Source: Clostridia bacterium (GTDB lineage Bacteria > Bacillota > Clostridia > UMGS1883). From it: a stretch of DNA of 20,907 nt. Below, in pieces: positions 11,035 to 13,435 of this stretch (its first letter is position 1; each line of letters begins with the position of its first letter). The notes below the pieces were generated by a model that was given only the letters and a program-made list of their open reading frames with translations, did no database searches and was not told the DNA's origin. Both the position numbers and the translations under genes were made by a program. The stretch spans positions 1-20,907 of the forward strand of contig JBJDXJ010000004.1 of the NCBI GenBank assembly GCA_051866635.1. Direction: 5' to 3'.

Positions 11035-12460
11035 ATCCTTTGGCGTAAAACTGTGGATGTATTTTGCATTGTTTACCGCAGTTATATTTTGCCTGTTATG
11101 GCTTATGCAAACGGTTTTTCTGCAATCATTTTATAATAAAATGGAAATCAGAAATATAAATTACTGTGCTGAACGAGTGGTAAATGAGCAAAACAATGAA
11201 GAGTTGACAGAAATTATTGATGACATTGCACATAAGAATGCCTTACTTGTTTTTTTAACTGCCCTTGACGGGAATGTTATTTACAGCACAGATGAACATA
11301 ACTATAAAAAAGGAAATTGGCAAAGAACACAGCAGAATGAAAATCCGTTCAAAAACAATACGGAACAATTGAACTGGCAGAAGGGAACTTTTCGCAATCT
11401 TCCCGATGGGTATGAAGATTTTTTATTAAAGTTATCCGAAAGCGATAGAAAAACAGTTAATTACGAAAATGATGATTCATTTATATATGGAACTGTTCTT
11501 GATAACAACAATGTGTTATATATAAGCAAGCCTCTTGATTCGGTTGAGGGAACAATAAATATCCTTTGCAAACAGCTTATATTGGTAACGTTTGCCTCTC
11601 TGATTTTCGGCTTTATACTTTCGTATTTTGTTTCACGCAGATTTTCAAAACCGATTAAATCTATTACAGAGCAGGCGTTAAATATCAACAATGCAGAATA
11701 CCAACCACATTTTGACAAAGGATTTTGTAAGGAAACCGATGAATTATCCGAGATTATAGAAAAAACTTCTAAGGATTTAATAAAAGCGGAAAATTACCAC
11801 CGTGAGTTTTTTGCCAATATTTCTCATGATCTTCGCACGCCGTTGACAATGATAAAAGGATATGCGGAGATGGTAAAGGATTTTTCGTGGCAGGAAAAAG
11901 ATGCACGTGAAAACGACCTTGATGTCATTATTAAAGAAAGTGACCGCTTAACAAGTCTTGTAAATGAGATTTTGGAATACGGAACATTGCAATCAAAGAC
12001 CAAAAAGTATGATATTAAAAGATGCAATATGTCCGAGATTGCTTCTGATATTGTAAAACAATTTGCCTCACTGTGTGAAAACAACGGAATAGTTATAAAC
12101 GCAAATATTGAAAATGATTTATTTGCATTATGTGATGAACAGGAAATATCCCGTGTATTGTATAACTTTATAGATAATGCCATGAATCATACTAAAAATG
12201 AAATTACAGTATCCATAGAACAAAATGATGATAAAGTGTTTGTGGAAGTGCATGATTTTGGGGACGGAATAGACGAAGAAAGCTTAGAATATATATGGGA
12301 CAGATATTTTACAGAAAAACAGAGTAAACGTACAAAAACAGGCTCTGGGCTTGGACTTGCCATTTCAAAGGAAATACTGTCTGCTCATAATGCTGAATAT
12401 GGTGTTGCAAGCAAAACCGGTGACGGGACAACATTTTGGTTTGCTTTAGAAAGGGCATAA
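11024..12460 (+). CDS. Sensor histidine kinase (2 TM, HAMP-like, HisKA, HATPase)
   Basis: H-box ANISHDLRTPLT, N-box NFIDNA, G1 DFGDGI, G2 GSGLGLAI; overlaps the regulator stop. Confidence 0.95.
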   Translation: MKAKSFGVKLWMYFALFTAVIFCLLWLMQTVFLQSFYNKMEIRNINYCAERVVNEQNNEELTEIIDDIAHKNALLVFLTALDGNVIYSTDEHNYKKGNWQRTQQNENPFKNNTEQLNWQKGTFRNLPDGYEDFLLKLSESDRKTVNYENDDSFIYGTVLDNNNVLYISKPLDSVEGTINILCKQLILVTFASLIFGFILSYFVSRRFSKPIKSITEQALNINNAEYQPHFDKGFCKETDELSEIIEKTSKDLIKAENYHREFFANISHDLRTPLTMIKGYAEMVKDFSWQEKDARENDLDVIIKESDRLTSLVNEILEYGTLQSKTKKYDIKRCNMSEIASDIVKQFASLCENNGIVINANIENDLFALCDEQEISRVLYNFIDNAMNHTKNEITVSIEQNDDKVFVEVHDFGDGIDEESLEYIWDRYFTEKQSKRTKTGSGLGLAISKEILSAHNAEYGVASKTGDGTTFWFALERA

Positions 12461-12513
12461 AATACATAAAGTCTAATAACTGTTGTTACAAAAAATGTAA
12501 AATGTTGATGATT

Positions 12514-12684
12514 ATGGCTAAAATTCTTATGGTATAGCACCCACGCAAAGGGGAGAATTATTGTAACAGCAGTATTAAAATCACTATTAAAGGAAATACG
12601 GAACGTATTGCCGACTTTATTCAAAAAGTGGCACGCGATGATTTGTTTAAAACTCAAATCATACATGAATACTGCAAAGGATAA
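12514..12684 (+). pseudogene. Flavodoxin pseudogene fragment
   Basis: Manual translation MAKILMV*HPRKGENYCNSSIKITIKGNTERIADFIQKVARDDLF resembles the flavodoxin N-terminus (Y.SR.GENY...KGNTE..A..I....GGDLF); in-frame TAG at 12535; truncated. Confidence 0.65.
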
Positions 12685-12855
12685 CAACCAAATAGGAAGT
12701 AATCAATTTGGGAATATTAAAACAATAAAGATGCAGATTCAACAGTATATGTTATTTTTGATTGGATTATTCATAGTCTCAATGGTCATTGCTTTTTCAA
12801 AAAAGCGGATAGGATTTATTTTGTTGAAAAAGAATCATAAGGATATTTTTGTTTA

Positions 12856-13028
12856 GTGAAATATCAAGCTGAGCTTGATGTGAAATAATTTACTTCGTAA
12901 ATCGTGAAATTTGAAGCTATTGTTTCAAGTAAAATGAAATAAATCCACACGCCGCAAGGCGTATTTCACATTGTGTAGCAATATTTCACGCCCGAAGGGT
13001 ATTTCACAAATCCGATAGGATTTATTTC
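12856..13028. repeat. GTGAAAT/ATTTCAC heptamer-hairpin array (structured non-coding element)
   Basis: GTGAAAT at 12856, 12880, 12904 (GTAAAAT at 12929) and ATTTCAC at 12963, 12983, 13001 (ATTTC at 13024), separated by short hairpins of differing sequence. Confidence 0.85.
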
Positions 13029-13031
13029 GTT

Positions 13032-13065
13032 GAAAAAACGACTTGTTTCGACAAGTCGTTTTTTC
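13032..13065. terminator. Bidirectional terminator abutting the tRNA CCA end
   Basis: Perfect 15-bp stem GAAAAAACGACTTGT-TTCG-ACAAGTCGTTTTTTC. Confidence 0.85.
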
Positions 13066-13149
13066 TGGTGCGGATGACAGGACTTGAACCTGCACGCCGA
13101 TGGCACCAGAACCTAAATCTGGCACGTCTGCCAATTCCGCCACATCCGC
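13066..13149 (-). tRNA. tRNA-Leu (anticodon TAG)
   Basis: GCGGATGTGGCGGAATTGGCAGACGTGCCAGATTTAGGTTCTGGTGCCATCGGCGTGCAGGTTCAAGTCCTGTCATCCGCACCA: acceptor stem GCGGATG/CATCCGC, anticodon arm CCAGA-TTTAGGT-TCTGG, long variable arm, GGTTCAA T-loop, encoded CCA. Confidence 0.97.
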
Positions 13150-13189
13150 ATACAGCAATGCAAAACATCTTAGTTTTGCATTGCTAACA

Positions 13190-13435
13190 TCACTTATTAA
13201 GATAATCTTTGAAAACTACTTCTAATATTTCGTCACGTTCAAATCTGGTAATCATGCCTCTTGCACCTTTATGGCTTGTAATGTAAGTCGGATCGCCTGA
13301 CATTATATAACCAACTAACTGACTTATAGGATTATACCCTTTTTCAGTCAATGCTTCGTGAACCAGTTTCAATATTTCACGTATTTCATCATTTTTGTCG
13401 CTTCCCAAATCAATCTTTGTAGTAAAGCTTGTCAT
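13190..13435 (-). CDS. ireB: IreB/ReoM-family regulatory phosphoprotein (UPF0297)
   Basis: VHEALTEKGYNPISQLVGYIMSGDPTYITSHKGAR..I...ERDEILE; ATG 13435 behind AAAGGA. Confidence 0.92.
   Translation of the reverse strand: MTSFTTKIDLGSDKNDEIREILKLVHEALTEKGYNPISQLVGYIMSGDPTYITSHKGARGMITRFERDEILEVVFKDYLNK

Follow-up and report, generated by a model that had tools for sequence, protein, structure and literature searches.

A Gut-1 hairpin array behind a tRNA-Leu gene in a Clostridia genome as a probable copy of a dispersed mosaic module

The stretch of DNA analyzed here (the window) comprises 20,907 nucleotides of a Clostridia bacterium (GTDB lineage Bacteria; Bacillota; Clostridia; UMGS1883; GenBank assembly GCA_051866635.1, contig JBJDXJ010000004.1, positions 1 to 20,907 of the forward strand). 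Between the stop of a histidine-kinase gene at 12460 and a minus-strand tRNA-Leu gene, beyond which lies ireB, it carries a hairpin-rich noncoding element that is, judged by its sequence, a further copy of Gut-1 (Rfam RF01706), a motif catalogued since 2010. The original prediction for this locus had described a ladder of hairpins separated by constant heptamers, and on re-reading the sequence we found all of its heptamers, hairpins, and spacings, as well as its terminator. On the plus strand, the left half carries GTGAAAT at 12856, 12880, and 12904 and GTAAAAT at 12929 (spacing 24, 24, and 25), and the hairpins between these heptamers (12863-12879, 12887-12903, and 12911-12928) all differ in sequence. 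The right half begins with a hairpin at 12949-12962, followed by ATTTCAC at 12963, 12983, and 13001 (spacing 20 and 18), each with a hairpin on its 3′ side (12970-12982, 12990-13000, and 13008-13023). A terminator stem with arms of 15 nt each (13032-13046 and 13051-13065) then abuts the tRNA gene. GTGAAAT occurs 359 times and ATTTCAC 372 times in the 2.33-Mb genome; runs of at least three heptamers no more than 40 nt apart occur nine times genome-wide, every one at a Gut-1 locus, and about 0.1 such runs would be expected by chance from the heptamer densities. Both strands fold much more stably than shuffled sequences (z = -7.42 and -7.46; 0 of 200 shuffles equal). The hairpin ladder beside the tRNA gene is real and goes beyond chance; the earlier claim of a nonrandom, hairpin-rich noncoding element tied to the tRNA 3′ end is supported.

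A cmscan search placed the minus-strand half of the element, from 13032 to 12958, above the gathering cutoff of RF01706 (50 bits), and a second, inverted match on the plus strand (12854..12940) fell below it. The cmscan alignment and the covariation of the first hairpin (hp1) agree with the family's description as hairpins with covarying stems joined by GUGAAAU. The element had not been recognized as a named family; because it is an already described Rfam family, the motif is not novel by the prediction's own standard. Matches to other Rfam families in 12600-13250 were at chance level (E of 0.14 or more; CRISPR-DR33 at 14.5 bits, E = 6.8). Gut-1 was described as a probable noncoding RNA (ncRNA) found in human-gut sequence only, and the table of that paper rates the motif "RNA? 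Y" (Weinberg et al. 2010, Genome Biol 11:R31; PMC2864571). Elsewhere in the literature, we found the name only as an example in a structure-prediction benchmark. The window thus holds one more copy of Gut-1, and it is the context, not the motif, that matters.

All copies of the genome were set in one orientation, and a total of 28 full modules were parsed, some of this genome and some of its relatives; a MAFFT alignment (A1) misregisters several hairpins, and the hairpin statistics therefore come from the separate parse. The Rfam model spans only hp1 to hp3 of a larger unit with a constant plan. The unit starts at a tRNA ending in CCA, followed by a G, six As, a stem, six Ts, and a C (together hp0) and by a first linker, CAAYGAAAT (L0). 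Next come array A, in which hp1, hp2, hp3, and hp4 alternate with linkers, a short joint, a segment named P0′, four reverse-complement linkers separating three hairpins (array B), and a conserved tail. The hairpins of array A are GC-rich and joined by GTGAAAT; those of array B are AT-rich and joined by the reverse-complement heptamer. Relatives use the linker words GTGAAAT, ATGAAAT, GCGATAT, GTGAAGTT, GATGAAATC, and GTGGTAT, and GCTAAAT and ATGAAG occur at further loci; the second half always bears the reverse complement of the first half's word. In the window (Table 1), the module's first base directly adjoins the CCA of tRNA-Leu, and the same CCA-G-A6-stem-T6-C frame, with differing stems, stands behind six tRNAs of the genome. 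Past the conserved distal flank lies a stub that is a direct repeat (D1) 90% identical to 13008-13037, and blastn matches it to module starts on contigs C49 and C12.

Table 1. Parts of the Gut-1 module and adjoining features in the window
Feature	Position	Strand	Basis
tRNA-Leu (anticodon tag), CCA encoded	13066..13149	-	ARAGORN; Rfam tRNA, 54.5 bits
hp0, first module hairpin, bidirectional and intrinsic-terminator-like (A6, 15-nt-arm stem, T6)	13032..13065		Arms 100% complementary
Array A, Rfam Gut-1 match	12958..13032	-	RF01706, 68.4 bits vs cutoff of 50, E = 5e-12
Order of array A: L0 (CAACGAAAT), hp1, GTGAAAT, hp2, GTGAAAT, hp3, GTGAAAT, beginning of hp4	hp1 13023..13008; hp2 13000..12990; hp3 12982..12970		
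hp4, fourth hairpin of array A, plus-strand loop GCAA	12949..12962	-	Sequence; parse of 28 modules
P0′, center segment complementary to L0 and hp1 left arm (13018-13028)	12936..12946	-	Inverted-repeat search, covariation, RNAalifold
Array B, inverted weaker Gut-1 copy, three AT-rich hairpins between three GTGAAAT and GTAAAAT	12854..12935	+	RF01706, 36.6 bits, below cutoff
Conserved distal flank; tRNA strand reads TAAACAAAAATATCCTTATG...	12832..12853		Common to copies on C12, C49, and other genera
Second module, truncated to its start (T-tract, CAAC, L0, hp1 left arm)	12802..12831	-	Direct repeat, blastn

A helix competing with the hairpins had also been proposed, and it proved real (12933-12946 with 13018-13031, 93% complementary). 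Its core, P0′ with 13018-13028, forms an 11-bp closing helix (P0) that excludes hp1. In an 18-sequence alignment, 98.5% of P0 cells are paired, 6 of 11 pairs have changed on both sides, and the covariation score is 0.441 vs 0.178 in shuffles, none of 500 scoring as high. RNAalifold favors P0 over hp1, and hp1, which is mutually exclusive with it, covaries too (score 0.585, reached in none of 500 shuffles; pairing in 94.4% of cells, with both partners altered in 4 of 6 pairs). The ladder of stacked four-way junctions drawn from nested pairing of the heptamers fared less well and is possible but unsupported. Such pairing predicts that the variable first base of a linker (G/A) matches the last base of its partner (C/T); Watson-Crick matches were found in 46 of 60 cases, vs 43.3 ± 2.5 after permutation within modules (fraction as high, 0.24), and in 13 of 21 vs 10.3 for the seven informative modules, which amounts to no position-specific covariation. 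On alignment A1 there is a faint signal (94.1% of cells pair vs 92.9% when shuffled, with 7 double-changed cells vs 2.6), and this excess comes from a few related modules, kinship being uncontrolled. About one-third of the genome's loci hold array A without array B.

Across the genome, 15 Gut-1 matches fall at nine loci, six of them convergent inverted pairs. A module directly follows 6 of the 35 tRNA genes (Cys-gca, Leu-tag, Asn-gtt, Glu-ttc, Leu-cag, and Arg-ccg), and a variant with CGATAT linkers follows a seventh, Arg-cct; other tRNAs have a plain terminator. Of the parsed modules, 21 of 28 lie 23 to 35 nt after a called tRNA (with one mis-assigned call at 107 nt) and 24 of 28 follow CCA and an A-tract; among the seven without a called tRNA, L056, L079, L081-, and L083 follow a tRNA 3′ fragment by eye. 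Gut-1 matches occur in 24 of 41 relatives, at up to 41 per genome and many at contig ends. The family is patchy among genera, and one genus of six genomes has no match at all. A pattern scan of public genomes returned at least 122 stretches, all labelled uncultured Clostridia, from human and animal guts; the pattern demanded a T-tract and so favors terminator-adjacent copies. Families among the matches listed include Acutalibacteraceae, Oscillospiraceae, Ruminococcaceae, Christensenellaceae, and others. Among the listed matches from these metagenome-assembled genomes that have enough flank, 51 of 77 follow a called tRNA (22 tRNA kinds), 63 of 77 follow CCA and an A-tract, and 68 of 77 have the inverted half.

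Copies within the genome are mosaics whose parts have discordant kinship. The arrays on C4 and C12 are 94% alike and their terminators 58%; C4 and C49 share terminators that are 97% alike and arrays that are 85% alike, and for C12 and C30 the figures are 97% and 68%. At the orthologous tRNA-Leu(tag)-ireB locus, the tRNA end was found in 10 of 13 loci, and a Gut-1 pair is present in only 2 of these 10, namely the window and a congener whose hairpins differ from those of the window; the remaining 8 carry other terminators. Two modules from different genera show 96.1% identity over 335 nt, set between unrelated flanks; the protein-coding neighborhood of ireB is only 69 to 76% identical even within the genus. 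Of these two modules, one (L016, G031:C157) has the tRNA-Leu(gag) 3′ end on both sides as a direct repeat of 11 nt, and the other (L017, G034:C54) is enclosed by 3′ fragments from two different Leu tRNAs.

On balance, we think that 12802-13065 is probably one complete, gene-less copy of the head of a dispersed hairpin-array cassette, together with the stub of a second copy, and we favor this reading with moderate confidence at most. The module would form the noncoding head of a small cassette lodging downstream of stable-RNA genes, and the complete cassette would carry a gene for a four-helix-bundle protein of family PF05635 (S23p/Avd-like), which the window copy may have lost or never had. 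The module may act, or persist, mainly as DNA, in keeping with its near-perfect palindromes and the lack of strand-specific wobble, and a trans-acting factor would probably recognize the heptamers as constant words. At the window locus, hp0 is likely the only working part: it would end transcription of tRNA-Leu on the minus strand and of the convergent histidine-kinase (two-component) operon on the plus strand, in which case the arrays ride in the 3′ untranslated tail of that operon.

The gene content of the cassette is drawn from relatives. Outside such cassettes, the PF05635 family is known only from diversity-generating retroelements and from selfish intervening sequences in rRNA genes. PF05635 occurs in 26 of 41 relatives: 23 have both it and Gut-1, 14 have neither, 1 has Gut-1 only (two weak matches), and 3 have PF05635 only. 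Three genera hold both states in agreement, and the discordant cases all fall in one genus. At no fewer than 13 of 76 listed PF05635 places, a listed Gut-1 match lies within 470 nt upstream on the same strand, a lower bound, with 129 Gut-1 matches outside those listed. In the four full forms that we read, tRNA, terminator, arrays, promoter, and a PF05635 gene of 114 to 119 codons follow one another. Twenty further PF05635 loci were fetched and the gene was located in 14, of which 10 have a hairpin or heptamer array directly upstream by eye, using other linker words. The protein subtype tracks the linker type: eight places are known to adjoin Rfam Gut-1 matches, and every one belongs to the 11 full-length matches that are at least 63% identical to the Gut-1-linked protein, and PF05635 genes behind GCTAAAT, GTGGTAT, ATGAAG, and TATTCAT arrays are 51 to 61% identical to it. 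Several such types coexist in one genome (G031). In the window, there is no PF05635 match or remnant (tblastn of 12461-12853, best E = 11), and blastn of the same interval matched only the 30-nt module-start stub. The genome's single PF05635 gene, on C58, is 51 to 52% identical to the Gut-1-linked type. That gene stands behind tRNA-Pro(ggg), and its promoter is flanked by facing, hairpin-less runs of TATTCAT-like heptamers (L074, 231-461); arrays of this type lie behind four other tRNAs of the genome (Leu-caa, Pro-tgg, Asp-gtc, and Pro-ggg).

Several points weigh against the cassette-head reading. The high conservation between genera could mean selection instead of transfer. A downstream copy of the tRNA 3′ end (last 10 nt) was found in just 3 of 21 modules, two of which are tandem tRNA-Glu genes; because this duplication is so rare, there is neither an insertion scar nor a known mode of movement. 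The module has no linked transposase, integrase, or recombinase, and the co-occurrence of PF05635 and Gut-1 across kin is not independent evidence. The genome holds at least nine arrays yet no close cognate gene, so that arrays persist alone or the gene was left unassembled (the assembly is 96.6% complete, in 63 contigs). Finally, arrays of the GCTAAAT type appear to be transcribed as a 5′ leader, which favors an RNA role: in these relatives, a promoter-like site lies 5′ of hp0 and none was seen by eye between the array and the ribosome-binding site. GCTAAAT-type arrays were read in the 250 nt upstream of the PF05635 gene at L123, L124, L127, and L128, the last with two tandem units. At L120, a module of this type lies behind the transfer-messenger RNA (tmRNA) gene with a hairpin that has no T-tract, and its array would be cotranscribed with tmRNA.

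A bolder and less probable extension is that a pentameric PF05635 protein has its cis partner, in DNA or RNA form, in Gut-1 and the sister heptamer arrays, the two together making up a so far undescribed class of very small selfish cassette at stable-RNA 3′ ends (tRNA and tmRNA; compare the intervening sequence [IVS] of 23S rRNA). Each subtype would have its own heptamer word, and the window element would be an orphaned binding array. In its specific form, with the arrays as a multivalent RNA or DNA scaffold for a PF05635 toroid, the four or five heptamers of each array being shown between hairpins in a loop closed by P0, we consider the idea unlikely. Through such binding, the protein could regulate its own gene or help to maintain or move the cassette, and solo copies would be decoys or relics. 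Such a scaffold would fit the PF05635 genes directly downstream of Gut-1 or sister arrays, the agreement of protein subtype with linker type, the presence of several types side by side in one genome, and the use of one linker type per element with two halves that always match. It would also suit the S23p protein, which is carried by selfish, inverted-repeat-bounded intervening sequences of 23S rRNA that RNase III excises and is described as a homopentameric toroid (PMC4990558, citing Lin et al. 2006 for the latter). Gene and array are, however, physically linked, so that a match of protein subtype and linker type follows from common descent. Moreover, genomes G000, G019, and G034 have many GTGAAAT arrays and a best match to the Gut-1-linked protein of 51 to 53%, and sequence-specific nucleic acid binding is not known for the family.

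The reading taken by Rfam, a true structured ncRNA in which the arrays are transcribed on the GUGAAAU strand as a small RNA (sRNA) or protein sponge, is distinctly improbable in our view. It accounts for the score above the Rfam cutoff and the rating given by Weinberg et al. (PMC2864571), for the covariation of hp1 and P0, for the strong fold, and for the 5′-leader position of GCTAAAT-type arrays. Set against this are the stems themselves. Among 112 unique hairpins with 626 stem positions, 589 positions (94%) pair by Watson-Crick rules, with G·T and A·C at 10 positions each. An RNA selected on one strand is expected to tolerate G·U and avoid A·C. Because G·T equals A·C in number, no strand looks like a selected RNA strand, and the pattern is that of DNA palindromes; palindromes can also stay perfect through template switching within a repeat. 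The plus-strand preference inferred in the original prediction in part from two G·T pairs, both of which are present, was not upheld across the family. Its argument that structure is under selection, since the hairpins differ yet all pair, is weaker than it appears: the stems are drawn from a small common vocabulary found again in one genome after another and, like DNA palindromes, have almost perfect Watson-Crick pairing. The two strands of the window fold equally well, one half of every element is in the wrong orientation for any single transcript, and the elements are multicopy, mosaic, and found at contig ends. The final T of the tRNA terminator is also the first base of array A, which leaves the array no space for a promoter of its own, and promoter-like sites in 12300-13400 show no excess (4 vs 3.9 expected by chance). 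A DNA or single-stranded DNA (ssDNA) role, which had also been suggested, is at least as likely as an RNA role.

It is very improbable that the arrays are passengers of transcript tails like REP or BIME elements, blocking 3′ exonucleases and read-through and insulating the tRNA from the convergent kinase operon. The array does lie between convergent units with a bidirectional terminator, and in 12300-13400 no plus-strand terminator-like site was found between the kinase stop and hp0; the constant heptamers, inverted pairing, helix P0, and PF05635 link would be left unexplained, and a plain terminator suffices for other tRNAs of the genome.

Hardly credible, finally, is a folded-ssDNA substrate of a strand-specific recombinase or HUH enzyme (RAYT/IS200, integron-attC, or Xer-exploiting) that cuts by the heptamers and moves the module to tRNA ends: the perfect palindromes, the inverted doublets resembling REPINs, and the loops speak for it, and the absence of a target duplication and of any such enzyme gene in the window or next to the full copies read speaks against it. 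The loops are the only asymmetric part of the hairpins, with G...A loops on the ATTTCAC strand (GNA triloops and GNNA tetraloops, mostly C-G closed) in 45 of 60 unique hairpins on the A side and 27 of 52 on the B side, and d(C-GNA-G) mini-hairpins are unusually stable. The original prediction had named integrase, HUH/RAYT, GIY-YIG, and reverse-transcriptase genes as neighbors to look for; none of these families, nor a transposase, is represented among the window's 23 open reading frames (ORFs), and the four full PF05635-bearing copies have no transposase, integrase, or HUH gene beside them. The genome has two PF01797 matches, and an intact RAYT-like Y1 transposase gene lies at C38:210333-211100 (L076, C38:209307-212549, a stretch that includes a masked-base run), preceded by two GC-rich hairpin copies next to CTAC/GTAG, a classical REP-type repeat. 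As this gene is flanked by its own GTAG-type hairpins and not by Gut-1, we rejected it as a mobilizer of the module. A miniature inverted-repeat transposable element or other transposon was rejected for want of a regular target-site duplication and of a transposase in the window or beside full copies, and a tRNA-targeting integrative island because the window has no integrase family and no attL/attR-like repeat of the tRNA-Leu 3′ end (none within 700 nt downstream).

The surroundings of the module hold further noncoding features. The 393 bp between the histidine-kinase stop and the module (12461-12853) contain small ORFs at 12385-12687 (minus) and 12608-12856 (plus) with no Pfam match, and the interval has no other copy in the genome except for the 30-nt stub. 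On the far side of the tRNA, a perfect 13-bp hairpin with a 6-nt loop (13154-13185), lacking a T-run, lies between the ireB stop and the tRNA-Leu 5′ end and is probably the ireB terminator or a processing stem. Directly after some other tRNAs lies a conserved noncoding insert of 190 to 330 nt, termed Module Z (L003 about 1251-1470, G000:C49; L006, G000:C46; L054 about 2369-2700, G009:C29), for which no Rfam match was found there. At its beginning stand a terminator and the tRNA T-arm in inverted copy; at its end, the last 11 to 18 nt of the tRNA, with the CCA, are repeated directly, and a Gut-1 module may come next. The insert resembles an integration scar or a small element. In a third family found behind tRNAs, a terminator (AAAATCGACAAG...CTTGTCGATTTT) precedes facing runs of ACTTATTCACTATT-type repeats. 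Two of its copies trail tRNA-Leu(aag), others trail Gln-ctg, Glu-ctc, and Lys-ctt, and on C12 it comes directly after the Gut-1 module (L005 about 1240-1400).

Gut-1 is filed as an sRNA without known function, and the evidence points instead to a dispersed, mosaic DNA module that lies directly after tRNA genes, has its own bidirectional terminator, and in its complete form precedes a PF05635 gene. If the PF05635 link is true, Gut-1 and S23p, two long-standing unknowns, become one testable system, and annotation pipelines should cease labelling Gut-1 arrays as sRNA genes. With many copies at contig ends, the arrays also break assemblies of gut Clostridia.

Among known systems, REP, BIME, and REPIN elements are short extragenic palindromes with a constant short word at each hairpin and are associated with RAYT transposases. 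The Gut-1 module shares with them constant words by hairpins, inverted clusters, and multiple intergenic copies, often at transcript ends (here nine loci, six of them inverted pairs). It differs in that its heptamer is not GTAG, each element has several different hairpins, copies number in the tens and not hundreds, the position behind tRNA genes is fixed, and the genome's RAYT-like gene is flanked by other repeats. In the way they might work, TRAP-binding triplet arrays and the plasmid parC iteron arrays that flank a promoter, both multisite protein-binding nucleic acids, are comparable, with regularly spaced constant words by the promoter of a gene for a small oligomeric protein; in the module, the spacers are hairpins and the arrays are inverted. 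Gut-1 as catalogued has at least three small hairpins joined by GUGAAAU and comes from uncultured gut bacteria only (PMC2864571), which fits; Rfam, however, models a single array as an sRNA, whereas the unit here is larger (terminator hairpin, P0-closed array A, and inverted array B), lies directly after tRNA genes in many mosaic copies, and elsewhere stands in front of a PF05635 gene. We found no account of the tRNA or PF05635 link in the literature, and neither these nor the larger unit is mentioned in the searchable text of the 2010 paper, although its supplement (Additional file 1) may say more. The last comparison is with the 23S rRNA IVS of Coxiella burnetii, as described in PMC4990558. 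Unlike the IVS, which lies inside the rRNA and is cut by RNase III, the module lies after the CCA of a tRNA and beyond its terminator, its inverted parts are hairpin and heptamer arrays and not one long stem, and the window copy is outside any stable RNA and has no PF05635 ORF. Like the module, the IVS is a small selfish element at a stable-RNA gene, with inverted-repeat bounds and horizontal spread, which can carry a PF05635/S23p gene and of which gene-less or decaying forms are known.

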